A stretch of DNA of 24,382 bases from Spirochaetota bacterium (GCA_050298055.1 JBNKTL010000059.1:1-24382); one strand, 5' to 3'; shown: positions 1,395 through 23,495, numbered from the stretch's first letter. The notes: generated by a model from the letters alone, not told the origin. Numbers and translations are program-made.

Positions 1395-2390
1395 TCAAAT
1401 TCTCATCCTGTTTATTTCATCATCACGGGCCGGCTCCCTTGCCTCAATGATTTTTTCCTCTCCCCCTCTCCTGAAGAGGCAAATACCGATCCCGGTCTCC
1501 GGTTTGCCATATCTCGAAAGGACAGAGGCAGAAAGGATAATATCTTCATTGCTGAACTTTCCCTTTCCAAAAACACACGGCCCCTTGAAGCGGGGAATAA
1601 AAAAATAATCTGAAAAATCCCGGTACTTTTCCAGAATATTATTTTCCGTTTCATTCTTGGAGACAATGATCTTTGCGTCCCGGCTTATCCTGATATGCCT
1701 GCCCACAGTGAGAAGATAGTAATCGAGAGGGGTCAGTTCGGTGTGATGGCCCAGGAGGTCCTTCACCCTCTCTGAAATAAAAGAGTCTGTAAAGAGGCAT
1801 CCCCCTGCAGGCCAGGAAAATTCATCCAGGCCGAACTCCCGGGCAAGTTCAAGCTGGCGTTTCCGTGATCGTCCGCTGATATCATAGAGTTTCTCCCTGT
1901 GGACCAGGCCCTCCTCTTCGGGAAGTGTGGGTTTAAGGATCTTCGCGCTGAGGGGCCTGAGAAGCCTTCCCCGGAGACCGGAAACCCTGAGGATATGGTT
2001 CATCATGTGTTTCTGCTGAGACATGGGCCTCTGACCCACAACCTCTCCCGTGGCCACAAAGTCCGCACTTCTCTCCCGCATGAGGTCTGCCGCCTTGCCG
2101 ATAAAGTGTATCTTGCAGTCAATGCAGGGGTTCATTTTCTTCCCGTAACCATGGGGAGGGTTTTTGACAATTTCAAGGAACTCATCACCGCAGCGGTAAT
2201 ATTCCAGGTCCAGCCCGATTTGTCTGGCAAGACGGGCGGGATGTGACTGGCCGGGGTCGGAGTCCGGGGGAGTAAAGGGGAGGATACAGTGAAGACCTGT
2301 CATCCGGAGCCCCTGGTCCAGCAGTATCTTCGCGGCAAGGAGGCTGTCAAGCCCCCCGGAGTAGAGGAGTATCCCCTTTCCCCTCCTCAT
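1395..2390 (-). CDS. ThiI/MnmA-like PP-loop ATP pyrophosphatase (putative tRNA thiouridine synthase / sulfur-insertion enzyme)
   Basis: SGGLDS PP-loop, NPCIDCK, TGEVVGQRPMSQ, LLRPLSAK, PAGGCLFT; ATG overlaps the moeA stop (TGATG). Confidence 0.8.
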   Translation of the reverse strand: MRRGKGILLYSGGLDSLLAAKILLDQGLRMTGLHCILPFTPPDSDPGQSHPARLARQIGLDLEYYRCGDEFLEIVKNPPHGYGKKMNPCIDCKIHFIGKAADLMRERSADFVATGEVVGQRPMSQQKHMMNHILRVSGLRGRLLRPLSAKILKPTLPEEEGLVHREKLYDISGRSRKRQLELAREFGLDEFSWPAGGCLFTDSFISERVKDLLGHHTELTPLDYYLLTVGRHIRISRDAKIIVSKNETENNILEKYRDFSDYFFIPRFKGPCVFGKGKFSNEDIILSASVLSRYGKPETGIGICLFRRGGEEKIIEAREPARDDEINRMRI

Positions 2391-3610
2391 CAAATCTCCT
2401 CATGTCTCAGGAGCTCAATGGTTACACTCTCACCCTTTTTCACCTGCTCTACGTCTGACGGGAGAATTATCAGGCAGTTGGCTTCACTCATGGACCGGAG
2501 GATCCCGGAACCCTGCGGACCGGTAGTGGAAACATGAAAATTTCCATTGCTCAGAGTAAAGTACCCCCTGATGAAATTCCTCCTTCCCGCCTTCTTCCTG
2601 ATATCGTCATCTGCCACTGCACTGATATGCGGTTTCTCCAGTCCCGACGCTCCCATCATTTTGAGAATCGCCGGCCGTACAAATTCATTGAAGGAAATCA
2701 GTGTTGAAACCGGATTACCCGGAAGGCCAAAAAAGAGCTTTCTCCCCAGGGTGCCGAATACCATGGGCTTGCCCGGTTTCATCCTGACCGTCTCTATCTT
2801 GATATCCACACCGAGTTCCTTCATGACATCTTTCACATAGTCATATTTCCCCATGGATACACCGCCGGTGGTTATAACAATATCGTTTTGAAATCCCTTC
2901 CGGAAGAGACTTTTTGTCTCCTCTTTATCATCCTTTGCAATTCCAAGATAGTCGGGGACCCCCCGGTATCTCTTTATCTCCTGCTGCAGAGTGTAGGCAT
3001 TGCTATTCCTGATCTGTCCCGGTTTTATCTCCTCGCCGATATCGACGATCTCATCACCGGTTGATATTATTGCAACTTTTGGCCTCCTGAAAAGATCAAC
3101 TTCACGACAATTAAGGGAAGCAAGAAGCCCGGTATCCGCCGATCTCAGAATATCGCCCCTTTTTAATACTCTCTGTCCGCGGGAGATATCTTCACCTGCG
3201 AACCTGACATTTGCATTCTCCTTGAGATCCCGGTAGACCAGGACAGTCCTATTCTCTTCGGATGTGTCCTCAACAGGGATCACCGCATCGGCTTCCTGTG
3301 GCATCGGCGCCCCTGTCATGATCCTCACAGCCTGGCCGCTGCCTACATTCAGTTTTTCATTATTTATACCCGCCTGGATCTCTCCGGTAATCTCAAGCCT
3401 GACGGGATTCTCTCCTGACGCATCTTTCAAATCACCGGACCTTACGGCATAACCGTCCATTGCAGAGTTGTTAAAAGGGGGGATATTTATGTCTGAGAGA
3501 ATATCAGTGAAGATAATTCTGCCTGCCGAATCAAGGATATCCGCTTTCTCTCCTTCAAGCTGATAAACGGAATCCAGAATGATATTCAGAGCTTCATTAA
3601 ATTGGATCAT
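2390..3610 (-). CDS. moeA: Molybdopterin molybdo/tungsto-transferase MoeA
   Basis: PPFNNSAMDGYA, RIMTGAPMP, STGDE, TTGGVSMG, MKPGKP, GLPGNPVS, QGSG..SM..AN motifs; 406 aa. Confidence 0.96.
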   Translation of the reverse strand: MIQFNEALNIILDSVYQLEGEKADILDSAGRIIFTDILSDINIPPFNNSAMDGYAVRSGDLKDASGENPVRLEITGEIQAGINNEKLNVGSGQAVRIMTGAPMPQEADAVIPVEDTSEENRTVLVYRDLKENANVRFAGEDISRGQRVLKRGDILRSADTGLLASLNCREVDLFRRPKVAIISTGDEIVDIGEEIKPGQIRNSNAYTLQQEIKRYRGVPDYLGIAKDDKEETKSLFRKGFQNDIVITTGGVSMGKYDYVKDVMKELGVDIKIETVRMKPGKPMVFGTLGRKLFFGLPGNPVSTLISFNEFVRPAILKMMGASGLEKPHISAVADDDIRKKAGRRNFIRGYFTLSNGNFHVSTTGPQGSGILRSMSEANCLIILPSDVEQVKKGESVTIELLRHEEI

Positions 3611-7649: not shown

Positions 7650-8495
7650 ATGATTATTAATCACAACATGTCTGCAATTAACGCCAACAGGGTGCTGAAA
7701 TTTCAGCACTGGAATGTAGACAAAAGCATGGAAAAGCTTGCCTCGGGTATGAGGATCAACAAAGCCGGGGACGACGCCTCGGGACTTGCTGTTTCAGAGA
7801 AGATGAGGACCCAGATACAGGGACTGAGGCAGGCTGAAAGAAACACCGAGGACGGAATGTCCCTCATCCAGACCACCGAAGGTTACCTCCAGGAATTGTC
7901 CGCCATTATTCAGAGAATCAGGGTACTTGCCGTACAGTCATCAAACGGCATATACACCCCTGAGGACAGGCAGCTGATACAGATAGAGGTATCGGAACTG
8001 GTTGATGAAGTGGACAGGATAGCCTCACAGGCTGAGTTCAATACAATGGCCCTCCTCCAGGGAGACTTCTCCCGTGTACAGCCGGCCGCTTCCATGTGGT
8101 TTCACATGGGTCCCAACATGCACCAGAGAGAAAGGATCTATATCCAGACCATGACGGCACGGGCATTGAAGCTCAAGGACGTTGTGGGCAGACCGGTAAC
8201 GCTCTCAACGCCGTTCCATGCCAACATGAATATCGGGGTCATGGACGACGCCCTTCAGATCATCTCAAAACAGAGGGCGGACCTCGGTGCATATTACAAC
8301 AGGCTTGAACATGCAGCCAAGGGTCTCATGAACGCGTATGAAAATATCCAGGCATCCGAAAGCAGGATAAGGGATGCCGATATGGCCGAAGTAACAGTGG
8401 ATTATACCAGGAACCAGATACTGGTCCAGAGCGGAACACTGATGCTTGTCCAGGCAAATATGAAGTCGCAGACAGTTCTGCAGCTTCTCCAGTAG
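7650..8495 (+). CDS. flaB: Periplasmic flagellar filament core protein FlaB (flagellin), copy 1
   Basis: [58 protein letters not shown]; 281 aa, spirochaete-type length. Confidence 0.97.
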
Positions 8496-8526
8496 GTATT
8501 ATTTTGTGATTTTTCTTCCTTGAAAC

Positions 8527-8560
8527 GCGGCCGGTTGATATGTTTCAATCAGCCGGCCGC
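8527..8560 (+). promoter_or_regulatory. GC-rich stem-loop after flaB1 without a U-tract
   Basis: GCGGCCGGTTGAT / ATGTTTCA / ATCAGCCGGCCGC, 13 bp with one G-U pair. Confidence 0.6.
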
Positions 8561-8683
8561 CGAATGCTCTTTGAAAACGAAACAATTACTGCAAGCATTA
8601 AGCCCTGTTCACAGGTCCGTGTGGTTGCAGTAATTCTGACGATGGTATTCCCTGGCTTGAGTTACCGTAACCTGGTATTAAAC

Positions 8684-8719
8684 GCCTGATAAGGAGATCG
8701 GGCTAAACAAACAAAGGAG
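8684..8719 (+). promoter_or_regulatory. CsrA-type GGA hairpin and Shine-Dalgarno of flaB2
   Basis: GCCTGAT-AAGGAG-ATCGGGC (8684-8703), then AAGGAG (8714-8719) 8 nt before the ATG at 8728. Confidence 0.65.
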
Positions 8720-8727
8720 TGTTTAAC

Positions 8728-9579
8728 ATGATTATTAATCATAATATGAGCGCCATCAATGCAAACAACGTGTTAAGGTTCAAGCATTGGGACGTAAACA
8801 AGTCAATGGAAAAACTTGCCTCAGGCATGAGGATCAACAAGTCCGGGGACGATGCTTCCGGTCTTGCAGTATCTGAAAAGATGAGGACCCAGATACAGGG
8901 ACTGAGACAGGCTGAAAGAAATACCGAAGATGGTATGTCTTTCGTTCAGACAGCTGAAGGTTATCTCCAGCAGACAGCTTCGATTCTGCAAAGGATCAGG
9001 GTTCTGGCAGTCCAGTCTTCAAACGGTATCTATACTCAGCAGGACAGGCAGCTGATACAGGTTGAAGTATCCGCTCTTATAGACGAAGTGGACAGGGTCG
9101 CTTCACAGGCCGAATTCAACAAGTTCAATCTTCTTCTCGGAGATTTCTCACGAACAAATCCCAAGGCAAGTATGTGGTTTCACATGGGACCCAACATGCA
9201 CCAGAGAGAGAGAGTCTATATCGGAACCATGACATCTGCCGGTCTTAACCTCAGGGAGAGGACAGGAAAATTCCTTGCAAACCTCAGTACAGCTGACGGA
9301 GCAAACAGGACAATAGGTGTTATTGACGATGCTCTTCACAAGATCGCAAAGCAGAGAGCTGACCTGGGTGCTTACTACAACAGGTTTGAATATGCAGCCA
9401 AGGGTCTTATGACAGCATACGAAAACATTCAGGCATCTGAAAGCCGAATCAGAGATGCTGACATGGCTGAAACCATGGTAGATATGACCAAGGACCAGGT
9501 CCTTGTTCAGTCAGGAACAGCAATGCTGGCACAGGCAAACCTGAAAACAAGAACCGTATTACAGCTTCTTGGTGGTTAA
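8728..9579 (+). CDS. flaB: Periplasmic flagellar filament core protein FlaB (flagellin), copy 2
   Basis: Paralog of 7650-8495 with the same flagellin N- and C-terminal motifs (GTAMLAQAN); ATG at 8728 chosen from alignment and RBS. Confidence 0.97.
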
Positions 9580-11074: not shown

Positions 11075-13003
11075 ATGGGCCATTCCGTAACATACAAAAT
11101 TCTTAAAGAACACCTTGTAGAGGGTGAGTTAAAACAGGGAAATGAAATAGGGATACGCATTGACCAGACACTTACACAGGATGCCACGGGAACAATGGCC
11201 TACCTTCAGTTTGAAGCCATGGACATACCAAAGGTCAAGACCGAGATTTCAGTCTCATATGTGGATCACAATACCCTGCAGATGGGTTTTGAGAATGCCG
11301 ATGACCACCGGTACCTCCAGACCATGAACTCTAATTACGGAATATACTATTCAAAGGCGGGAAACGGCATTTGTCACCAGGTCCACCTTGAGAGATTCGG
11401 GAAACCGGGATCAACTCTTCTGGGGTCTGACAGTCACACGCCCACCGGGGGAGGAATTGGTATGATAGCCATAGGCGCCGGGGGCCTTGATGTTGCAGTG
11501 GCAATGGGAGGCGGTCCCTTTTACCTTACTGCGCCTAAAGTGATTAATATCCGGCTCACCGGAAAGCTTCGTCCCTGGGTCTCCGCCAAGGACCTGATTC
11601 TGAAAGTCCTGGAGCTTCTCACAACAAAAGGCAACGTGGGATGCGTGGCGGAATACACGGGCCCCGGGGTCTCCACACTCACTGTCCCGGAAAGAGCAAC
11701 CGTAACAAATATGGGCGCGGAACTGGGGGTGACCACATCGGTCTTTCCCAGCGATGAACTCACACGGAAGTTCCTTGAGGCCCAGGAGAGGGGAGATTCA
11801 TGGAGGGAACTCCTTCCCGACCCGGATGCCGAATATCACAGGACCATAGAAATAGACCTCTCGGAACTGGAACCGCTGGTGGCCTGCCCCCATTCACCTG
11901 ACAACATAAAGAGGATCTCCGGGCTTGAAGGAATGAAGGTGGACCAGGTCGCCGTGGGGAGCTGTACAAACTCATCATACAAGGACCTGATGACCGTGGC
12001 GGAGATCGTTAAGGGGAAAAAAGCCGATCCGGGAACCAGCTTTATCATCGCCCCGGGATCAAAACAGGTTTTCGAGATGATAGCCCGGAACGGCGCACTG
12101 GCAGACCTGATATCAAGCGGCGCGCGGATAATGGAATCCGCATGCGGTTTCTGTATCGGTTCCGGCCAGGCGCCCACAACAGAAGGGGTCTCCCTCCGGA
12201 CAAACAACAGGAATTTCGAAGGGCGTTCCGGAACAGCCTCCGGGAAGATATATCTTGCAAGCCCCGAAACAGCGGCCCTCTCCGCTCTTGAAGGAAAGCT
12301 TGTGAATCCCCTGGAAAGAGACCCAAAGGAATACCCGGAAATCAAGATCCCCGGCAAATTCCTGGTTGACGATTCCCTGATCGTCCCTCCTTCGGAAAAG
12401 AAACATGAAGTCTTCAGGGGCCCCAATATCGGCGATCCTCCCTATACGGAACCGCTCATGGATGAAATAGAAGGGATCATCGGCCTCAAGGTGGGGGACA
12501 AAATCACCACAGACCACATTATGCCCGCGGGGCAGAGACTCAAGTACAGGTCCAACATCCCCCGGTACGCTGAATTTGTCTTTGAAAACGTGGACCCTGA
12601 ATTCGCTTCAAAGTCCCTGGAGAATAAGAAAAAAGGGATATTTACCGCCATAATCGGCGGGGAAAGCTACGGGCAGGGCTCCAGCCGGGAACACGCGGCC
12701 ATCTGTCCCATGTACCTGGGGGTCAGAGCCGTTATTGCCCGGTCCTTTGAGAGGATCCATTCGGGCAATCTTGTTAATTTCGGGATACTGCCCCTCCGGT
12801 TTATCAATGAAGATGATTATGAGAACCTCAATTCCGGCGATCCCTTCAGTTTAAAAGGGCTCCGTGAATCGGTGAGTAAAGGGACCGATATCACACTCAT
12901 CGCGGCAGGGAAGGAGTACAGGCTGGAGCTGCCGGCATCGGAAAGGCAGAGGGAGATCCTCCTTGAAGGGGGACTTCTCAATTACACAAAAAAGAGGGTC
13001 TAG
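11075..13003 (+). CDS. acnA: Aconitate hydratase (short ~640 aa single-chain type)
   Basis: TQDATGT, DHN, GICHQVHLE, GSDSHT, GSCTNSS, ACGFCIG, NRNFEGR, TTDHI, GQGSSREHAA; GGAGG RBS. Substrate could be a related aconitase-family substrate. Confidence 0.9.
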   Translation: MGHSVTYKILKEHLVEGELKQGNEIGIRIDQTLTQDATGTMAYLQFEAMDIPKVKTEISVSYVDHNTLQMGFENADDHRYLQTMNSNYGIYYSKAGNGICHQVHLERFGKPGSTLLGSDSHTPTGGGIGMIAIGAGGLDVAVAMGGGPFYLTAPKVINIRLTGKLRPWVSAKDLILKVLELLTTKGNVGCVAEYTGPGVSTLTVPERATVTNMGAELGVTTSVFPSDELTRKFLEAQERGDSWRELLPDPDAEYHRTIEIDLSELEPLVACPHSPDNIKRISGLEGMKVDQVAVGSCTNSSYKDLMTVAEIVKGKKADPGTSFIIAPGSKQVFEMIARNGALADLISSGARIMESACGFCIGSGQAPTTEGVSLRTNNRNFEGRSGTASGKIYLASPETAALSALEGKLVNPLERDPKEYPEIKIPGKFLVDDSLIVPPSEKKHEVFRGPNIGDPPYTEPLMDEIEGIIGLKVGDKITTDHIMPAGQRLKYRSNIPRYAEFVFENVDPEFASKSLENKKKGIFTAIIGGESYGQGSSREHAAICPMYLGVRAVIARSFERIHSGNLVNFGILPLRFINEDDYENLNSGDPFSLKGLRESVSKGTDITLIAAGKEYRLELPASERQREILLEGGLLNYTKKRV

Positions 13004-13095
13004 CCGGCTGACACTTGTCAGTGTCCCGTATATTCCAGGCAGGTGCCATACTTTAATCATTGACACCTGAAGAGAAAAATGAAATCCTTTATTAC

Positions 13096-13608
13096 ATGAC
13101 AAATCACCTGGTTGAAATTCTCACAGCCCTGAACAGATCAGGGGTAAAATTTATCGTTTGCGGCGGTGTGGCGGCAGTCCTTCACGGGGTTGAACGCATG
13201 ACCATGGATATAGACCTTTCTGTGGATCTTGACAGGGAAAATCTTTCCAGGATGTTTGAGGTTTTAAAAACAATAGATTTGAAACCGCGAATTCCCGTAT
13301 CACCGGAAATCCTCCTTGATGAAGATGCCAGAAAAATGATGATTCAGGAAAAAAATGCCCTTGTTTTCACATTTGTTGATCTAAACAATCCTTACAGGCA
13401 GGTTGATATTTTTTTAACCGAAGAGATGTCCTATGATAAGTTGAAAAATGAAACTGAAAGGATATGTATCGGGGGAGATGATATCCTCATTATCTCACCT
13501 GAAAAACTGATCGCAATGAAAAAATCCGTAATACCTTTAAGAGATAAGGACAGAACTGATATTGCCATTCTTGAAGAAATATTAAAAAACAGAAAATCTA
13601 ACGGATAA
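13096..13608 (+). CDS. Pol-beta-superfamily nucleotidyltransferase (minimal NTase / toxin-like)
   Basis: GGVAAVLHGVERMTMDID, VDIF and LIAMKK..RDKDRTD motifs; start could be TTG 13060. Confidence 0.8.
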   Translation: MTNHLVEILTALNRSGVKFIVCGGVAAVLHGVERMTMDIDLSVDLDRENLSRMFEVLKTIDLKPRIPVSPEILLDEDARKMMIQEKNALVFTFVDLNNPYRQVDIFLTEEMSYDKLKNETERICIGGDDILIISPEKLIAMKKSVIPLRDKDRTDIAILEEILKNRKSNG

Positions 13609-13791: not shown

Positions 13792-14496
13792 TTACAACTC
13801 CCTCAGAAAATTGAGGATCCAGCGGGCAACATCAAGGCTGTTCGCGGGTCCGTCAATGGTTTCCATGGCCCGGTTTACCTTCTCCTCCCCGATACGGAGC
13901 GTCCGTGAGAGAATCAGTTCCCGGGCATAAGGGACCTCGAACTCCGGATGGGGCTGTATTCCCAGGAACCTCTCCCCGGTGAGGAACATTGCGTTGGGAC
14001 AGTAATCGCTCAGGCCCAGAAGCTCGGAACCGGGAGGAAGTTTTGTAACCTGGTCCCTGTGGGTTACCAGGAGGTTCACCTCATTAAGTGCGGGCTCCAT
14101 CCAGGGCATCCTCTGCGTTATCTCGATCTTCTTGAGCCCGATTCCCCATCCACATTCAGCTTCTTCCACCGTCCCCCCCAGGGCGTGGGCGATCATCTGG
14201 TGCCCGAAGCAGATTCCCGCGAACTTCTTTCCCGCTTCATAGAGATCTCTGATAAAGTTCGTATACTCCTTTATCCAGGGAATATCGTCATAGACCGACT
14301 GCCGGGAACCTGTGGATAAATATCCGTCATATTCCCCGTTCAGAGGGGGATAACGGCCCTCCCTTATATCGAAAACACCGATCTCCACACCGGGATCTAT
14401 TTTTCCGAAAAGCTTCACAAACATCCCGGGATAGTCCCCGGCAATGGGGATAAACTCCGGGCTGACGCTGTCACACTGGAGAAGGGCTATTCTCAT
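13792..14496 (-). CDS. Class I glutamine amidotransferase-like hydrolase (putative gamma-glutamyl-amide hydrolase)
   Basis: GICFGHQ nucleophile elbow and QPHPEF (Cys-His-Glu triad); ATGA overlap with the GS-like gene. Confidence 0.88.
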   Translation of the reverse strand: MRIALLQCDSVSPEFIPIAGDYPGMFVKLFGKIDPGVEIGVFDIREGRYPPLNGEYDGYLSTGSRQSVYDDIPWIKEYTNFIRDLYEAGKKFAGICFGHQMIAHALGGTVEEAECGWGIGLKKIEITQRMPWMEPALNEVNLLVTHRDQVTKLPPGSELLGLSDYCPNAMFLTGERFLGIQPHPEFEVPYARELILSRTLRIGEEKVNRAMETIDGPANSLDVARWILNFLREL

Positions 14497-15875
14497 ATCT
14501 GTTCGAAATATCTCCTCTTCTCCCAGTCGGTCACGGCCTTGTCATACTGTTCAAGCTCTGTTCTGTAGAAGTGGAGATAGTGCTCCACAACATCCTTCCC
14601 CAGTGCCTCAACGGCAAAGCTGCTCTTCTCCAGTTCCGCGATGGCATGTCTCAGGGTTATGGGAACACGGTCCACCTTGTCCGCCGAATAGACATCTCCG
14701 GAAAAAATTTCAGGGGGTTCAATTTTGTTCCTGATCCCGTCCAGTCCCGACGCCAGGGCCGCAGCATAGGCGGTATAGGGATTTACATCGGCCCCCGGCA
14801 TACGGGATTCGATCCTCAGGGAGCTCCCTTTTCCCACGACCCTGAAGCAGGCTGTCCTGTTATCATAGCTCCAGGCGATACCTGTGGGCGCCCAGGAACC
14901 GAGCTGGTATCTCTTGTATGAATTTACCGTAGGAGCATAAAAGAGCGTCATCTCCGCCGCGTGTTTCATCCAGCCCCCCAGGAACCACCGAAAGGTGTCA
15001 GAGCCCTTCACCGGCCCTATCTCCTTATCCCCGCTGAAGACGTTCTTTTCCTTATTGTCCCAGAGGCTCAGGTGCATGTGGCAGCTGGACCCCGCAAGCT
15101 TTTCGTCAACCTTGGCCATAAATGTCACGGCCAGGTCAAGCTGGTCGGCCAGGTCCTTGAAGCACTGCTTGTATATCATGTGCCTGTCGGCCATCTCCAG
15201 CACGTCGGAATACTGGAGGTTGAGTTCATGCTGCCCGGGGCCCCATTCACCCTTGCTGAACTCAACGGGGACGCCGCTCAGGGTAAGGAACTTCCGCGCC
15301 GCGGCGTTCAGGGGCTCCTCTCTCCCTCCCTGGAGAATATGATAATCTTCAATATAGTTGCTGAACCTTTCCAGGTTGGAGTAGCTTTTTTCCCGGGCGC
15401 TCTTATAGTTCTCATCAAAGATATAGTACTCAAGCTCCGAGGAGCCCATAACATGAAGACCCATCTCCGCGGCGGCATCCAGCTGCTTTTTCAGCATGTT
15501 CCGGGGAGCAATTTCCGTGGGCCTGTGCTCTTCTTCATAGATGTCGCAGATAACAATGGCCGTTTTCTCAAGCCATGCCGCCCTTCTCAGGGTATTCATA
15601 TCCACCACGCAGTGAAAATCCCCGTACCCTGTCTCCCAGTTGGCGTATTTATACCCGGGGATGGGCTCCATCTCCATATCAACGGTAAAGAGATAGTTGC
15701 AGGCGTGCATACCGGTTTTAACGGTATGCTCCAGGAAATACTCCCCCGTAATTCTCTTTCCCATGAGCCTTCCGTAGAGGTCGGGAAATGCCGCTATGAC
15801 GGTCTCAATTTCACCGTTTTCTATGAGGAGGGTGAGCTGGTCAAGATCAAGCATATGTTTGTTATTGCTGCTCAT
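14493..15875 (-). CDS. glnA4: Glutamine synthetase-like gamma-glutamyl-amine ligase, GlnA4 type
   Basis: FPDLYGRLMGKR, CNYLFTVDMEM..GY...WETGYGDF, ELEYY, EWGPGQHE, GSSCHMHLSL, NSYKR, DNRT, RIESRMPGADVNPY. Confidence 0.85.
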   Translation of the reverse strand: MSSNNKHMLDLDQLTLLIENGEIETVIAAFPDLYGRLMGKRITGEYFLEHTVKTGMHACNYLFTVDMEMEPIPGYKYANWETGYGDFHCVVDMNTLRRAAWLEKTAIVICDIYEEEHRPTEIAPRNMLKKQLDAAAEMGLHVMGSSELEYYIFDENYKSAREKSYSNLERFSNYIEDYHILQGGREEPLNAAARKFLTLSGVPVEFSKGEWGPGQHELNLQYSDVLEMADRHMIYKQCFKDLADQLDLAVTFMAKVDEKLAGSSCHMHLSLWDNKEKNVFSGDKEIGPVKGSDTFRWFLGGWMKHAAEMTLFYAPTVNSYKRYQLGSWAPTGIAWSYDNRTACFRVVGKGSSLRIESRMPGADVNPYTAYAAALASGLDGIRNKIEPPEIFSGDVYSADKVDRVPITLRHAIAELEKSSFAVEALGKDVVEHYLHFYRTELEQYDKAVTDWEKRRYFEQI

Positions 15876-15899
15876 ATTTGGTCTCCTTCTTTACGGCCG

Positions 15900-17051
15900 T
15901 TAAAGGGCGGCCCTGTAGATTTCCTTAAGATCGTTCTCGGTAAGCGGTATCATATTCTGCGAATGGCACGGATCGGAAAAGGCGTAAGCGCCCAGTCTCT
16001 CTATATCCTCCCCGGATATTCCCCGGGAGGAAAGCCCCGGATCGATGCCCAGGGATTGAATAAATTCAAGCAGGCATCCGGAGAGCTTCTCTCCCCTGTA
16101 ATTTCGCTCCCGGAAAAGTCCGCGGACCCCATCAATTCTTCCCCGCTGATCATTATTTAAGCTGCTCTTCTCAAGGAATTCAAGAGAGGGGGGGATCATC
16201 AGTGCATTGGCAAGCCCGTGATGCATTCCGAAAAGGCTCGAGAGGGGATGCGCCAGGGAGTGGACCATCCCCAGCCCCTTTTGAAATGCCGTTGAACCCA
16301 TGGATGAGGCCAGGAGCATCTTCTCCCTGGCTTCAATGCTGTTTCCGGTTTTGCAGGCAACGGGGAGCCAGTCAAGGACCAGCTTCATTCCCTCCAGGGC
16401 TATCCCGTCGGCCATGGGGTGAAATCCCGCGGCGAAGTACGCCTCCATGCAGTGGGAGAAGGCATCGATTCCTGTTGCCGCGGTAAGGCCCGGGGGAAGT
16501 CCCGTTGTCATCTCCGGTTCAAGGACCGCGATCTTCGGCATAAGGTCGGGATGAAAGAAGATTGTTTTTTTCCCGGTCCCGGTGAGTACGATCACGCCTG
16601 AACGTCCCACCTCGCTCCCGGTCCCCGCTGTGGTGGGGATGGCGTAGAGGGGGGGCATGGGCCCGGTGATAAGCCTGTCTCCCCCCAGGGAGTCATCGTA
16701 CTGTTCCAGGGGCGGTTTATTTACAGTCAGTATCTTTATCACCTTCGCCGTATCCATGGGGCTCCCTCCCCCCAGGGCGATGAGGGAATCACACTTCTCT
16801 TTTTTATAGACCTCCACTCCGGCCCAAACATCCTGTTCGTCGGGATTCGGTTTCACCCTGTCAAAAACCACGTAAGCTGTTCCCCGGCGCTCAAGCCTGT
16901 CCGTAAGCATTTTCAAAAGACCCGAGCCGGCAATCCCGCTGTCAGTTACAACCAGTATCCTGGTGTGATCGTATTCTTTCAACCTGTTTATAAACTCATC
17001 CAGGGACCCCTGGCCGTAGAGTATTGTTGTGGGATAATTAAACTGCTGCAT
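15900..17051 (-). CDS. Iron-containing alcohol dehydrogenase
   Basis: GGGSPMD, PTTAGTGSE, DAFSHCMEAY, HSLAH, HHGLAN metal-binding motifs. Confidence 0.93.
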   Translation of the reverse strand: MQQFNYPTTILYGQGSLDEFINRLKEYDHTRILVVTDSGIAGSGLLKMLTDRLERRGTAYVVFDRVKPNPDEQDVWAGVEVYKKEKCDSLIALGGGSPMDTAKVIKILTVNKPPLEQYDDSLGGDRLITGPMPPLYAIPTTAGTGSEVGRSGVIVLTGTGKKTIFFHPDLMPKIAVLEPEMTTGLPPGLTAATGIDAFSHCMEAYFAAGFHPMADGIALEGMKLVLDWLPVACKTGNSIEAREKMLLASSMGSTAFQKGLGMVHSLAHPLSSLFGMHHGLANALMIPPSLEFLEKSSLNNDQRGRIDGVRGLFRERNYRGEKLSGCLLEFIQSLGIDPGLSSRGISGEDIERLGAYAFSDPCHSQNMIPLTENDLKEIYRAAL

Positions 17052-17072
17052 TTTTATTCTCTCTCATATTTA

Positions 17073-18947
17073 TCATTCAACTGCCCATTCAAGGCCAAGT
17101 TCGCGGATTTTGCCCCTGCGGATCTTTCCCGTGTCAGGGTCCCACCCCATCATGGAGTAGTATTCCCTCTTTATACGGGCAAGCGTCTCCGGGTCAACAT
17201 GTTTTCCCTGAGAGGGCCCGCCGGGAAGGGGATGAAAGAGCCGTTCCGGGAGAAGATCATCCCGGGAAGTCAATCCCCGCTTTTCATTCACTAATTTCAT
17301 CATGTTTATCCGCCTCTCGCCGGCCTTCATCAGCTCCCAGAAGGTCATCTCCCAGCCTGTTGCGCAGTTCACCAGGTCAACAAGTTCATTGTACGTGAAG
17401 AGGTTCCCCGGACCCCAGCAGAACATGCAGAGGGAAAGCGCGTCCAGGAGGCTGAAATAAATCTGGGACTGCAGGGCCATTCTCACCTTGGAGGTCCCGG
17501 TCGAATCAGCGGTATCAACATCATAGATACCCAGGCCCCTGGCGGCCTCGGACCCGCTTGTGATCAGCCAGTCGTGTTCCGAGGACATATGGTCGGGACC
17601 GATGGGGCATACGGCGTAGATGAGGGCCTGGCTCGGCTTCACCTGGGGCATGTGGACGGGGAGTCCCTCTCCCTTCACATGGACGGCATAGGGTTCCGTT
17701 GCGCTTCCGAAGAAGTCGATCATGGGGGAAAAACCCTCTGCCATGAGATCACCGGGCCCTTCCCTCTTTGCGATAAGCTCTATAAGCTTAAAAAGAGATT
17801 CCGGGTCCCCAAAGGAGAAGCTGTTCCCTCCCACCCTGTCCGGAGTAATGAGGCCCTTCTCCATGGACTCGAAGATATATCCCGCCACACTTCCCGTTGT
17901 TATGGTATCCAGTCCGTAGTTGTTGCAGAGCTCGTTGGCCTTTGCCACTGCCGCAGCATCGATTATATTGAGGTTCGACCCGAGCATCCCCAGGGTCTCA
18001 AATTCAGGGCCTCCCAGCCTGTCACTTACCGCATGGGGTGCATCAGACTTCACCATCTTCCTGCATCCCACAACGCACCCGAAGCATGTGGACCTGCCCG
18101 CGCCCAGAATCTTCTCGAAGTATTGGCCGTCAAGCTTCTCATGTTCCTCATGGTATCCCCGGGAATAATTCAGTGTGGCAAGGTTTCCCGCATTGGCCTG
18201 GAAGCTCAGAACCCCGGGGGTCCCGAACTTACTCAGTGTTTCGGGAAAACCGGAACCGGGGAGCCTTTCGGCGGCGGCCCTGTTCAGCTTCTTCAACCCT
18301 TCGGGGTCGCTGAATTCAGGCCCGCTTCCCCCCTTCACCACAACCGCCCGGAGGTTTTTGCTTCCCATGACCGCGCCCATGCCCGCCCTGCCGAAGGCGT
18401 CACAAGTGTCAGCAATGACATTGGCAAACCTCACCAGCTTTTCCCCCGCGGGACCGCACTGGACAACGGATGTGTCCTTTTCCCCGTGCTTTTCCCTGAG
18501 GATATCATAGACTTCCAGGACTGTCTTCCCGGAAAGGCCCCCTGCGTCCAGGATCTTTGCCTTACTTTTTTCTATGAACAGGTATGACGGATATTCCGCC
18601 CGTCCCTTCACCACAACAGCATCCAGGCCGGCCCTCTTGATCATGGGGCCTGTGCTTCCCCCGGCCTGGCTGTCACCGATAGTTCCGGTAAGAGGGGAGA
18701 GGGCGGTGAGACAGCACCTGCTGGCGCCGGAGACCTTTGTTCCCGTTGTAATACCGGGAGAGAGGGTCAGGATATTATCCGGGGAGAGGGGGTCAACAGC
18801 CGATACCCCTTCCGAGAGTATGAACCATGTCCCCATACTGCTTCCCCCGGGATACATCCGGTAGAAAGTTTCGTCCATGGAGAGAGTTTCGGTCTCCCCT
18901 GTTGTAAGGTTGACCTGCAATATCTTTCCGGTAATTCCTTTCGTCAT
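17073..18947 (-). CDS. aor: Aldehyde:ferredoxin oxidoreductase (tungsten/molybdenum AOR family)
   Basis: SPLTG...DSQAGG, GPAGEKLVRFA, GRAGMGAVMGSKNLRA, CFGCVVGC, GPEFET, GLDTIT, LSLCMF; 624 aa. Confidence 0.93.
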   Translation of the reverse strand: MTKGITGKILQVNLTTGETETLSMDETFYRMYPGGSSMGTWFILSEGVSAVDPLSPDNILTLSPGITTGTKVSGASRCCLTALSPLTGTIGDSQAGGSTGPMIKRAGLDAVVVKGRAEYPSYLFIEKSKAKILDAGGLSGKTVLEVYDILREKHGEKDTSVVQCGPAGEKLVRFANVIADTCDAFGRAGMGAVMGSKNLRAVVVKGGSGPEFSDPEGLKKLNRAAAERLPGSGFPETLSKFGTPGVLSFQANAGNLATLNYSRGYHEEHEKLDGQYFEKILGAGRSTCFGCVVGCRKMVKSDAPHAVSDRLGGPEFETLGMLGSNLNIIDAAAVAKANELCNNYGLDTITTGSVAGYIFESMEKGLITPDRVGGNSFSFGDPESLFKLIELIAKREGPGDLMAEGFSPMIDFFGSATEPYAVHVKGEGLPVHMPQVKPSQALIYAVCPIGPDHMSSEHDWLITSGSEAARGLGIYDVDTADSTGTSKVRMALQSQIYFSLLDALSLCMFCWGPGNLFTYNELVDLVNCATGWEMTFWELMKAGERRINMMKLVNEKRGLTSRDDLLPERLFHPLPGGPSQGKHVDPETLARIKREYYSMMGWDPDTGKIRRGKIRELGLEWAVE

Positions 18948-19047
18948 TTATTTCTCTTTTAATGTAAATGAAGAATATTTTCAGGAATATTTGATGTTTT
19001 GAAATGTCAAGGCTTTTAAAGGAGGGAATGTGCAACATGTAAACATG

Positions 19048-19081
19048 ATAAAAGGTCTCACGCGAAGATGAGACCTTTTAT
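19048..19081. terminator. Bidirectional intrinsic terminator
   Basis: ATAAAAGGTCTCA-CGCGAAGA-TGAGACCTTTTAT, perfect 13-bp stem just downstream of the 19104-19328 gene. Confidence 0.8.
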
Positions 19082-19356: not shown

Positions 19357-19497
19357 GTAACTACTTAGCTGTATGGCCAAAATATAGATGTTTAATAAAA
19401 TAACAGCCATGAGTCCCCGCCGCCGTCGGCGGCGGGGACTCATCAGTTATCTTTTATTCATTAACATATCTCATTTTATACATAGCTGAGTAATAAC
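19357..19497 (+). mobile_element. MITE-like repeat, copy 4 (141 bp, best preserved)
   Basis: Terminal inverted repeats GTAACTACTTAGCT / AGCTGAGTAATAAC; perfect 16-bp stem ATGAGTCCCCGCCGCC-GTC-GGCGGCGGGGACTCAT (19409-19443). Confidence 0.88.
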
Positions 19498-19634: not shown

Positions 19635-20972
19635 TTAAGGACCGCCGGACTTCCACAGCCCCAACCGGTCCGGGTAAAAACCCGCTGAGACCTCGGTACT
19701 GGATACTCCGTATCCGACCAGTGTAAGACTTCCATCCTCCTCAATAAACACCTCCGGGTCCAGGACCCTGAAATCGTTCCAGGCAACCGGGGATGAGGGG
19801 GACAATACCGGGTTTCCCGCATAACGGGTCCAGGTAATTCCGTCTTCAGAGGTGGCAACACCGATAGATATCTCCTTCGTATCATCAAGGGGATGAATTA
19901 AGGCCGAGTACCACATAACATATCTCCCGCCCATAAACCGTACATGTGAATCCAGTATCGATTCGTCCCACTGACCGGCAACTCCTTCAAATACCGGGTT
20001 GCCGGAAAAAACGGTCCAGGTCTCCCCGTCTTCAGAGGTGAGCATACCGATCCTCATCTTACCACTGACATGGGAAAAGGAGGCCCCTGTATAATAAAGA
20101 CGCCAGATGCCATCGGGCCCCATAAGGGCGGAGGGGGAGGTCATGAAGTCACTGTCCCACGCGCCTGTTCCGGGACGGTAGAGGGGATTATCGCTTCGCT
20201 CCCACTGGGTCCCCTCAGCATCAAGGGAGGATGCCTGGCCCAGAGCGGGATCGGTAAAATAGTCGACGCTGTAACCCAGGTACCACATTTTCCACTTCTG
20301 GCTGGTTTTATCGAAACACAGGGATACGGTTTCACGAATATAGTCCCAGGGAAGGGGATCGGGGACGGCTTCAGCCGGTTTTTTGGGATAGATCACCGGC
20401 TCCGCATCCAGAACAAAATCAGTTCCGCTTTCAACTGCCCGGCCGATAACAGGCCAGAGTCCCCAGTCTCCCCCGGCGGAAAACCAGATCACCAGGGAAC
20501 TGTCATCCAGGCGTCCCACAGAAGGATCGGTATGGCCCAGGCATCCCCAGTCGGGGCAGGTCTGCAGATCAACCACGGGATTTCTTGAATCTTCCGTCCA
20601 GATAAGACCGCGGTCCGGAACAGGGATGATATTAATAATCTTTGAGGCGAATACGGTGCCTGACCCGTCATCGGCAGCGGCAACAACGGTCACTTTATCA
20701 GCACAGCGTACATCATCAAAACGTAAGGGTAATGTAATTGTGGTGACATTCCCTGAAGCCGGGGATATATCAAAAAGGGAACTGCAGTCATAATTATCCA
20801 CGGTAGCGGATACAACCTTCCAGAAAACACTTTCCTCTGAACCGGCGGTGAAGGTTACACTCTGACCGGCGTAGAGGTTTGTATCTGCCGGTTTGCTGTT
20901 TTCATCGCTGTTGCATCCAATAATAGCCAAAAAAAACAAAACGAGCATTGTTAATCTGAGAAAATTCTGCAT
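19635..20972 (-). CDS. Lipoprotein with five-bladed beta-propeller glycosidase-like domain (GH32/GH43/GH130-like fold)
   Basis: Lipobox LAIIG-C; repeated blades WD....P.......W.LYYTG....IG..TSEDG.TW....NPV. Confidence 0.8.
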   Translation of the reverse strand: MQNFLRLTMLVLFFLAIIGCNSDENSKPADTNLYAGQSVTFTAGSEESVFWKVVSATVDNYDCSSLFDISPASGNVTTITLPLRFDDVRCADKVTVVAAADDGSGTVFASKIINIIPVPDRGLIWTEDSRNPVVDLQTCPDWGCLGHTDPSVGRLDDSSLVIWFSAGGDWGLWPVIGRAVESGTDFVLDAEPVIYPKKPAEAVPDPLPWDYIRETVSLCFDKTSQKWKMWYLGYSVDYFTDPALGQASSLDAEGTQWERSDNPLYRPGTGAWDSDFMTSPSALMGPDGIWRLYYTGASFSHVSGKMRIGMLTSEDGETWTVFSGNPVFEGVAGQWDESILDSHVRFMGGRYVMWYSALIHPLDDTKEISIGVATSEDGITWTRYAGNPVLSPSSPVAWNDFRVLDPEVFIEEDGSLTLVGYGVSSTEVSAGFYPDRLGLWKSGGP

Positions 20973-22253: not shown

Positions 22254-22402
22254 GAAAAAAAATCATATGAATGTTTAAAAAAACTGCCTGAAATGTGTTT
22301 TTTGAGGTAGAAGATTCAGTTGGGATTATTGGAAAGAGAATGAAAACGGGATGAAGAATAAAATAAATAAAAGTCTATGATCTTACTACCGTGGAGGTGA
22401 AT

Positions 22403-23495
22403 ATGACAGGTCCTTGTTTTTTTCGATTATGTGTATTGATGACGATAATTATGAATTTACCCGGTTGCGGCAGTTCTCCCGATGGCAGCGAGGAATGCAC
22501 CAGCCTGGATTGTCTGACATCAAAATATAACCTTCTCATCGCCGATATTGACGGGAACAATATCTCGGTTCTGCTATCCAGCAGCTGGCAGGATATGACT
22601 CACCCCCGTGTTTCTGCTGACAGGAACTGGGTTGCGTACACCACTTACAATACTGCAGATGCGGACGGATGTGCCTTCTACCACACCCGTACAAATACAG
22701 AGATTCGTGTAGTCAGCATGGACGGTACCAAGGACAAGCCGGTCATTCCCCCGGTGGTGACTGAGATCAACTCCAACAGCTACTGGTATGGAAGCGCCAA
22801 TGAGTTCACCTTTCTCTCAGGTGCCGGCGGGGCGACAAAACTGTATCGCGCTCAACTGGATACATTAATGAACCTGGTTTCCGGCCCTGCGGAGATCCCG
22901 GTCCCCCCTGCAATTATTCCCCCCTTAGACCCGGCTGCTCAGGCAGCAACGTGGAAAAATCGTTTATGCCGGACTGTATAACAGCGGGGGTATTGTAAAA
23001 AGCATATTTATTATGAACATTGCAGACAGCTCATCTTTTGATGCCCTGAGCCTGGGGCGGGACAGTACGGGGAAGATTCTCTATGGCAATGATGTTTTCG
23101 AAAATGATCCGAAGATATCTCCGGATGGTGACAAGGTGGCATTTATGCGGATTGCGCCAAAATCCGGTGCCGATGGATTTGGCTGGCACATCTTCATCGT
23201 CACTATTGCAGATCCATTAAATGAAACAGATATCTCAATGGCAGACCTGGGATCAAATACGAACGTTCATGATACGCTTCCGGAATGGATCAATAATGAT
23301 ACACTTGTGATTTCACAGATGGACCAGGATACAGATACCCGGGAGATCTATACTATGAACGATGACGGTTCCAACCGGACAAAAGTAAACCTGCCGGACG
23401 GTTACCGTTATGCGGATGTTTTTACGTTTACCCGCAGTAACGGAGAAACAAAATTACTCATTTCGGCAGAAAAAATATCCGCCGACTGTCACTAG
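22403..23495 (+). pseudogene. TolB/WD40-like beta-propeller lipoprotein split by a frameshift near 22952
   Basis: GGAGG RBS, lipobox LPG-C, HPRVSADRNWVAY and DPKISPDGDKVAF blades; frame 1 ...PAAQAAT joins frame 2 GKIVYAGLY...IMNIAD if one base near 22952 is removed. Confidence 0.72.

Follow-up and report, generated by a model that had tools for sequence, protein, structure and literature searches.

An operon of four genes in a Spirochaetota bacterium appears to encode an anaerobic route from ethanolamine to glycine in which the amine is carried through gamma-glutamyl intermediates. The operon occupies positions 13792 to 18947, on the minus strand, of a 24,382-nt stretch of DNA (GCA_050298055.1, JBNKTL010000059.1:1-24382; this whole stretch is called the window here). 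It encodes a tungsten-family aldehyde oxidoreductase (AOR), an iron-containing alcohol dehydrogenase (Fe-ADH), a glutamine synthetase (GS)-like ligase and a class I amidotransferase. We put the probability that the operon converts ethanolamine to glycine through gamma-Glu-ethanolamide, its aldehyde and gamma-Glu-glycine, with ferredoxin as the electron acceptor, at roughly 0.6. We hold with good confidence the narrower claim that AOR oxidizes the aldehyde of one or another glutamylated amino alcohol.

In the proposed mechanism, the ligase would spend ATP to glutamylate ethanolamine, masking the amine as gamma-Glu-ethanolamide, and Fe-ADH would oxidize this amide with NAD+ to gamma-Glu-aminoacetaldehyde. 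AOR would then oxidize the aldehyde to gamma-Glu-glycine while reducing ferredoxin, and the amidotransferase would release glycine and recycle glutamate. AOR would take the place of the NAD(P)-dependent aldehyde dehydrogenase (ALDH) of aerobes and would pull the uphill alcohol dehydrogenase step. This variant of the pathway would be independent of both oxygen and B12, and could serve ethanolamine or a close amino alcohol.

Organization of the operon

The four genes are those of AOR (17073-18947; 624 aa; AFOR_N and AFOR_C domains, large subunit only), Fe-ADH (15900-17051; 383 aa; PF00465), the ligase (14493-15875; 460 aa; Gln-synt_C) and the amidotransferase (13792-14496; 234 aa; GATase), all on the minus strand. 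AOR and Fe-ADH are 21 nt apart, Fe-ADH and ligase 24 nt, and the ligase and amidotransferase genes share a 4-nt ATGA overlap at 14493-14496. An earlier note on this DNA had described this arrangement, and the open reading frame (ORF) calls and the sequence agree with it; the spacing suggests that the genes are co-transcribed. The note had also placed a boundary at a terminator-like hairpin (19048-19081, minus strand) between the operon and the upstream YgaP-like gene. The hairpin is real: its 14-bp stem leads into a short U-run, and the 71-nt stretch that contains it folds with -20.5 kcal/mol (z = -7.2), with equally stable structures in 0 of 200 shuffles.

The hairpin is not among the outputs of a simple terminator scan, and a terminator downstream of the operon was looked for and not found. 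Between the hairpin and AOR lies an AT-rich putative promoter region (18948-19047, minus strand), read from the sequence, with TTGACA at 19010-19005 and no good -10 box; it is absent from the promoter-scan output for the window. The operon's GC content is 55%, compared to 44% over all bases of the genome. Assignments by ORF and Pfam confirm that the operon has no ALDH gene, and it has no transporter gene either. None of its four proteins reaches a curated NCBIfam cut-off.

A probable GlnA4-type ligase

The ligase keeps the metal, ATP and glutamate residues of the GS fold (alignment and fold search), and E147, E149, E210, E217, H266, R322, R340, R345, E356 and R358 are invariant in an 11-sequence alignment. 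Its departure from GS is at the flap: the E327 position is W328 in the ligase (GSWAP), compared to GYEAP in GlnA and GSFAP in the Streptomyces protein of glnA4 layout. GlnA4 carries F331 at this position (PMC6529630). The ligase misses the NCBIfam cut-offs of GlnA, GlnT and PuuA, and its top model by E-value, GlnA, gives 256 bits against a cut-off of 429.

In a quick IQ-TREE phylogeny of 29 rows, the ligase falls within a clade of 97% support that holds glnA4-layout and ethanolamine-layout ligases, namely those of the Streptomyces glnA4-layout cluster, a Paracoccus cluster of Phaeobacter layout and a Thermomicrobium cluster that includes an ethanolamine permease. IpuC-like, PuuA-layout, GmaS, aniline and GlnT ligases branch outside it. 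Identity to the reference ligases is 41-48%, and to the IpuC-like and aniline ligases 31-36%. An approximately unbiased (AU) test rejected the grouping with true GS (p-AU 0.0004); together with W328, this rules out the ligase as a true GS, as the earlier note had expected. Ammonia-dependent GS I enzymes have the flap glutamate, the curated score and the GlnA grouping, and the window ligase has none of the three. The phylogeny thus separates the ligase from GlnA, PuuA-layout and GmaS sequences and sets it beside those of glnA4 layout, with GlnA4 and the ethanolamine ligases represented by proxies picked by gene layout and SCO1613 not among the rows.

Two further comparisons bear on the substrate. 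Four metagenomic relatives of the ligase adjoin genes above the TIGR00908 ethanolamine permease cut-off, and the three of them that are included in a 52-row tree join the window ligase in a 100%-supported subclade; a further eat-linked row, outside the TIGR00908 scan, is also in this subclade. Using a predicted structure (pLDDT 74.6) only for the reading of PDB titles, we found the nearest solved structures to be 11zs (Brucella, titled glutamine synthetase; E 3e-136) and 5dm3 (C. salexigens Csal_0679; E 5e-106), with true GS structures far behind (E ~1e-51). We take Csal_0679 to be the ethanolamine glutamylase. The literature searched, including PMC5299690 and PMC5812351, yielded no tie between Csal_0679 and ethanolamine. 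By homology, the ligase is probably a GlnA4-type gamma-glutamyl-amine ligase, with ethanolamine as its presumed substrate.

AOR belongs to a distinct clade

The best PDB match of AOR is the P. furiosus enzyme (1aor, E 2e-93), and AOR has the hallmarks of the family: both AFOR domains, four 4Fe-4S cysteines and the catalytic Glu and His. It belongs to a clade of 41 rows with 100% local support and 49-64% identity (the AOR, ALDH and ADH trees were all made with FastTree only). C288/C291/C295/C507, E317, D347 and T243 are invariant in all 41 members, and H453 and H432 are kept in 40. These residues align to T243, E313 and H448 of PfAOR, and Y427 of PfAOR is replaced by His, a substitution reported for other AOR-family members (PMC12096430). 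AORs sampled outside the clade are about 35% identical or less, with one outlier at 41%, and the motifs QVKP, DHxSxEHDW and LCMFCWGPG are invariant inside it. By these sequence measures, the clade is distinct; it is also uncharacterised. We speculate that the SxEHDW motif after the catalytic His could bind the glutamyl group.

A gene for a small Fe-S or flavin subunit was found neither in the window nor among the recurrent neighbour clusters of 43 AOR loci, which therefore places the enzyme in class I of the scheme of PMC13328260. Its cofactor is probably a tungstopterin with a 4Fe-4S cluster, and its electron acceptor would be ferredoxin. Tungsten is the presumed metal, with indirect pointers in the TupA/TupB-like genes of the host (below cut-off) and in WtpA (above cut-off) beside AOR in L011.

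Fe-ADH and the amidotransferase

The other two enzymes fit the remaining steps. Three of the four best plasmid matches of Fe-ADH adjoin a GS-like gene, and Fe-ADH is 38% identical to its counterpart in the Paracoccus ethanolamine-layout cluster; we propose that it may act as a gamma-glutamylethanolamide dehydrogenase. The amidotransferase has an intact Cys96-His183-Glu185 triad, its best NCBIfam model is PRK05665 (below cut-off) and its closest solved structure is gamma-glutamyl peptidase 1. Homology leads us to propose it as a candidate gamma-glutamyl-glycine hydrolase. It shares 41% identity with gene four of another operon (L263), which is made up of GS-like, ALDH, Fe-ADH and GATase genes. 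L263 had been considered as a directly orthologous operon and was downgraded on the 31% identity of its ligase; it therefore backs the architecture of the pathway and not its substrate.

AOR and ALDH in related spirochaetes

Across 301 genomes of the phylum, the ligase is present in seven, the AOR clade in nine and the pathway-type ALDH in three (two genomes of this set are the same as those of loci L002 and L017). Six of the seven ligase genomes carry AOR and no ALDH; in the remaining one (G007), the reverse holds. A full glycine cleavage (gcv) operon flanks AOR in nine related genomes. In the sister genus, the order is ligase (divergent), gcvR-like ACT, gcvT, H, PA, PB, lplA, lipA and lpd, followed by an optional GapN-like gene, AOR, a GlpT-like MFS gene (missing in L002) and Fe-ADH. 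The gcv-AOR locus comes with the ligase in L002, L003, L004, L017, G293, G337 (ligase on another contig) and G360, and without it in G027 and G367. This gene order suggests that glycine feeds the adjacent glycine cleavage system in the sister genus.

G007 (99% complete) has the same gcv locus and, genome-wide, no AOR of this clade. There, the same MFS and Fe-ADH genes are immediately preceded by an ALDH that is 52% identical to the ALDH of the Paracoccus cluster and falls into a 99%-supported clade of ligase-adjacent ALDHs. The 541-aa GapN-like ALDH that adjoins AOR elsewhere was rejected as the pathway ALDH; it is missing there in L002, L017, G027 and G367, and it is far from the ligase-linked ALDHs. 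As a separate observation, an inserted cytochrome-oxidase-subunit-I-like gene with a weak TIGR02891 match separates the ligase from the gcv operon in G293 (L278:3673-5295).

AOR neighbourhoods across phyla

One scan of GTDB species genomes yielded 43 loci of the AOR clade, several of them short contigs. By tree labels, the clade spans at least seven phyla: Spirochaetota, Planctomycetota, Hydrogenedentota, Myxococcota, Poribacteria, Bdellovibrionota and Nitrospirota. This type of Fe-ADH is present at 25/43 loci, a class I GATase of ~290 aa at 22/43 and a HAD phosphatase at 15/43. The ligase is inside the AOR locus in 10/43 and lies 8-10 kb away, beyond the gcv operon, in four more, which brings the count to 14/43. 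An MMSDH-type ALDH is found at nine loci, a GapN-like ALDH at two and the pathway-type ALDH at one. Gene order around AOR varies, and the ligases belong to more than one subclade; L037 has an SDR in the module, as Streptomyces does. Both of the deepest AOR branches lie next to the ligase (midpoint root), a tentative sign that AOR and ligase were linked ancestrally and that Planctomycetota and Hydrogenedentota have lost the link.

Genome-wide, the ligase was found in 18 of the 43 AOR-clade genomes, and a search of these 18 found the pathway-type ALDH in none. The earlier note's expectation that AOR would be conserved next to these genes in other genomes is therefore borne out, with Fe-ADH, ligase and amidotransferase as AOR neighbours in further phyla. 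So is its view of AOR and ALDH as alternatives, for ligase-bearing genomes (18/18, and the 301 genomes of the phylum). Its larger proposal, a gamma-glutamylation pathway with AOR in the role of ALDH, gains from these results and from the ligase's separation from GS, and is weakened by an AOR clade that is not tied to the ligase.

The ~290-aa GATase is present in 38/43 AOR genomes, compared to 4/60 relatives; two of these four carry AOR, the third is G007 and the fourth has a completeness of 65%. The HAD phosphatase adjoins it in 17 of 18 fetched loci (L243-L260), and the pair (also at L001:9949-11585) tracks the AOR clade even when unlinked from it. Neither protein has a close solved relative or a curated family. 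Behind the pair, six loci (L245:6982-7368 and five related spirochaete loci) carry a ~130-aa gene without a Pfam match. In Hydrogenedentota (L255-L258), an AXE1 acetyl esterase gene stands between the two, a hint of an acetylated rather than glutamylated substrate there.

Other neighbours of AOR include GDPD and GlpT-like MFS genes, in addition to the HAD phosphatase, and a PotD-like ABC system in L034. A tungstate ABC transporter lies directly upstream of AOR on the opposite strand at L011:3796-6977 and L020:1-1705, with WtpA above cut-off in L011. Planctomycetota (L022-L031, L014 and L260) join the module to the aminoethylphosphonate genes phnW, pbfA and phnX and to a CoA-acylating MMSDH-type ALDH; among their AOR loci, phnX, phnW and a pbfA-like gene are each present in six.

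Evidence against the pathway and its energetics

Several observations weigh against the proposed pathway. The ligase tree holds no characterised GlnA4 sequence. In L263, the same ALDH, Fe-ADH and GATase serve a ligase that is only 31% identical to that of the window; the identity of the amine can therefore not be read from such partners. Twenty-five of the 43 AOR-clade genomes are without such a ligase, and the AOR clade is therefore not tied to it. A PF00120 search of 26 genomes (these 25 and G027; completeness is given for few of them) found matches of GSI or GSIII size and score in 21 and none in five. Among metagenomic ligase loci (80 of 580 confirmed), AOR is at 0/80, ALDH at 37/80 and SDR at 44/80, and where both flanks reach at least 2.5 kb (n = 28), AOR is at none and ALDH at 21; the form with AOR is therefore in the minority. 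Locus L039 has a pathway-type ALDH adjoining AOR. Support from within the phylum comes nearly all from one genus, and the exchange of AOR and ALDH in G007 is one event. Moreover, the G007 ALDH lies within a cassette of a GntR gene and four ALDHs, which occurs elsewhere in G027, a genome with AOR and ALDH together; we therefore no longer treat G007 as a clean one-gene swap. The cassette (L288:5397-12657 and L159:2289-10130) stands alone in G027 and sits inside the gcv locus in G007, where one of its ALDHs is split into two ORFs and the ALDH of interest is turned to run with the MFS and Fe-ADH genes.

The host genome (98% complete, within the spirochaete phylum) adds to these points; its placement rests on G045, a relative of the same order whose coordinates are those of L001, a locus with a Spirochaetota label in the trees. 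GcvP and GcvT were not found in it, its TupA/TupB-like transporter genes score below cut-off and it is without close orthologues of the relatives' HAD phosphatase, MFS and ~290-aa GATase. The ligase step consumes one ATP; by our estimate, one reduced ferredoxin gives back about half of that through Rnf. A net energy gain in the host is therefore doubtful, and the lack of GcvP and GcvT makes energy-yielding catabolism doubtful as well. The earlier note's idea of glycine as a product that accompanies a catabolic electron yield thus finds support in the gcv genes that flank AOR in the sister genus, and loses it in the host itself. There, a supply of glycine or nitrogen, or detoxification, is as likely as energy-yielding catabolism. 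SHMT and Fhs are present, and glycine probably goes to biosynthesis.

Other contents of the host genome describe an organism with low-potential metabolism. It has two RnfD genes and at least eight AOR-family genes, at least seven of them on other contigs (C6, C12, C23, C25, C34, C48 and C75). Searches found neither a heme-copper oxidase nor EutB in it. Its ALDHs are limited to a PutA-sized fusion, a piperideine-6-carboxylate dehydrogenase and a third, weak match, none orthologous to the pathway ALDH. Two GcvH-like genes are present despite the missing GcvP and GcvT. A GrdB search gave no match in the host, and none in the control genomes either.

Alternative explanations

The substrate of the same architecture could be a different small amine, or an amino alcohol such as 3-aminopropanol, 1-amino-2-propanol, alaninol or serinol, with AOR oxidizing its glutamylated aldehyde. 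The reuse of the partner enzymes with a distant ligase in L263, the modest identity of the window ligase to its references, the PotD-like system in L034 and the absence of an ethanolamine permease (eat) or TRAP gene from all 43 AOR loci would agree with this. We consider it rather unlikely, because ligases of the same 100% subclade adjoin TIGR00908 permeases, the gcv operon points to glycine as a C2 product, the GDPD, GlpT-like MFS and HAD phosphatase neighbours indicate phospholipid head groups, and the ligase lies outside the IpuC, PuuA, GmaS and aniline-ligase branches. AOR and Fe-ADH could instead be a general alcohol and aldehyde pair, acting for example on acetaldehyde from aminoethylphosphonate or glycolaldehyde from ethylene glycol, and merely clustered with the ligase. 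The ligase-less AOR genomes, the phnW, phnX, pbfA and MMSDH-type ALDH genes beside AOR in 6-9 Planctomycetota loci, the 2-hydroxyacid dehydrogenases near AOR in some loci and the broad-range aldehyde scavenging of most characterised class I tungsten oxidoreductases (WORs; PMC13328260) speak for such a role. It is nevertheless unlikely: the amide-cleaving ~290-aa GATase is found in 38/43 AOR genomes and in only 2/58 sampled relatives without AOR, the phn-bearing loci are close kin, the nearest annotated Fe-ADH relatives are in GS-like clusters, and the host has its other AORs and no ALDH for the aldehyde step.

The oxidative direction that we presume could also be reversed, with glycine glutamylated, reduced by AOR (ferredoxin) and then by the alcohol dehydrogenase, and released as ethanolamine. 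Although the host carries low-potential electron machinery, G007 has an NAD(P) ALDH in the same place, the reaction of such an enzyme is effectively irreversible, and the module comes with uptake transporters. Reversibility is reported for AOR-family enzymes (PMC12096430), but the ligase's relatives are catabolic (PMC6529630), and we regard the reductive direction as very improbable. Least credible, to the point of being nearly dismissed, is an ordinary ammonia-dependent GS within a chance assembly of genes. Homologues bear the database name 'glutamine synthetase' and GlnA is the top model, but its score falls far short, the flap glutamate is a Trp and the AU test rejects the grouping; furthermore, the genome has two other GS genes, both in the GSI branch, and an orthologue of the ligase is present in only 3/61 related genomes. 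Oxidation of glutamylated ethanolamine remains our preferred explanation.

Comparison with known systems

The closest described pathway is that of Streptomyces coelicolor GlnA4 (SCO1611-SCO1615; PMC6529630), which shares a GlnA4-type ligase without the ammonium-site flap glutamate and the same four steps (ligase, alcohol dehydrogenase, aldehyde oxidation and class I amidotransferase), with glycine and glutamate as predicted products. Only its ligase step has been shown biochemically (PMC6529630). The Streptomyces pathway is aerobic and relies on an SDR and an NAD(P) ALDH, with genes for a permease and a regulator in its cluster, whereas the window operon has Fe-ADH and AOR, and no regulator. 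The ethanolamine cluster of Chromohalobacter and Phaeobacter comprises RpiR, an N-formylglutamate amidohydrolase, a TRAP transporter, ligase, ALDH and Fe-ADH (PMC10132767, PMC9397018). It shares the ligase clade and the iron-dependent alcohol dehydrogenase, and the ALDH in the AOR slot of G007 is of its type; the window operon differs in having AOR instead of ALDH, a class I amidotransferase instead of the PF05013 amidohydrolase, and no TRAP transporter. Like the canonical ethanolamine gamma-glutamylation pathway, the operon unites ligase, alcohol dehydrogenase and putative gamma-glutamyl hydrolase in one cluster; since it has no NAD(P) ALDH (PF00171), it is a variant of that pathway, and its cluster is also without an ethanolamine transporter.

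With the class I WORs PfAOR, GAPOR and BmWOR (PMC13328260, PMC12096430), AOR shares the single large subunit, the 4Fe-4S cysteines and the second-shell Thr, Glu and His. It differs from them in its low identity (~35% or less) to the nearest paralogues outside its clade, in the His at Tyr427 and in its clade motifs. GAPOR is a precedent for a WOR that replaces an NAD dehydrogenase in a pathway (PMC13328260), and no class I WOR is described in amine metabolism in the texts searched. The words 'glutam', 'ethanolamine' and 'glycine' are absent from the main text and three supplements of PMC13328260, its largest table lying outside this coverage. The literature matches listed, from a search that did not extend to subscription journals, include none that assigns an AOR to a pathway of this glutamylating kind.

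The Puu/Pau polyamine and Ipu isopropylamine pathways follow the same logic (glutamylate, oxidize, oxidize, deglutamylate), but the window ligase is outside their branches and the operon has no flavin amine oxidase or P450. Ethanolamine ammonia-lyase (Eut) shares the proposed substrate and its use by anaerobes. The Eut pathway is B12-dependent, yields acetaldehyde and ammonia and often runs inside a microcompartment; unlike genomes that use it, that of the window gave no EutB match.

Other features of the window

Next to the operon, a nucleotidyltransferase-like gene (13060-13608) is convergent with it, preceded by an aconitase gene (11075-13003), two flagellin genes in tandem (7650-9579) and a gene for a MoeA-like molybdopterin metal insertase (2390-3610). 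On the other side, a GC-rich inverted repeat (19409-19443; perfect 16-bp arms, 3-nt loop) lies between the YgaP-like gene and a GH32-like lipoprotein gene (19635-20972). Two neighbouring ORFs at 22391-23495 (plus strand), with weak matches to TolB-like and peptidase propellers, may be one frameshifted lipoprotein gene.

Implications

Tentatively, and as a possibility that we rate low, the AOR clade may mark an undescribed anaerobic route for phospholipid head groups in multiple phyla. Phosphoethanolamine would enter by the GlpT-like antiporter, be dephosphorylated by the HAD phosphatase, glutamylated and oxidized to glycine with ferredoxin reduction. In ligase-less genomes, the ~290-aa GATase would be an ATP-free gamma-glutamyl transferase from gamma-Glu-glycine or glutamine to ethanolamine, much as CoA-transferases stand in for acyl-CoA synthetases in anaerobes; the genome of the window, without that enzyme, would keep the ATP-costing ligase and the hydrolase.

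A physiological role is defined for only five of 92 tungsten-oxidoreductase clades (PMC13328260, 2026). If the proposed pathway is correct, one more would gain a specific predicted substrate. Glutamylation-based use of ethanolamine, known from aerobes in the literature consulted, would extend to anaerobes without B12 or microcompartments, and the genomes that encode it would score as ethanolamine-negative in eutBC screens. Ferredoxin, and not NAD, would receive the electrons of the aldehyde.

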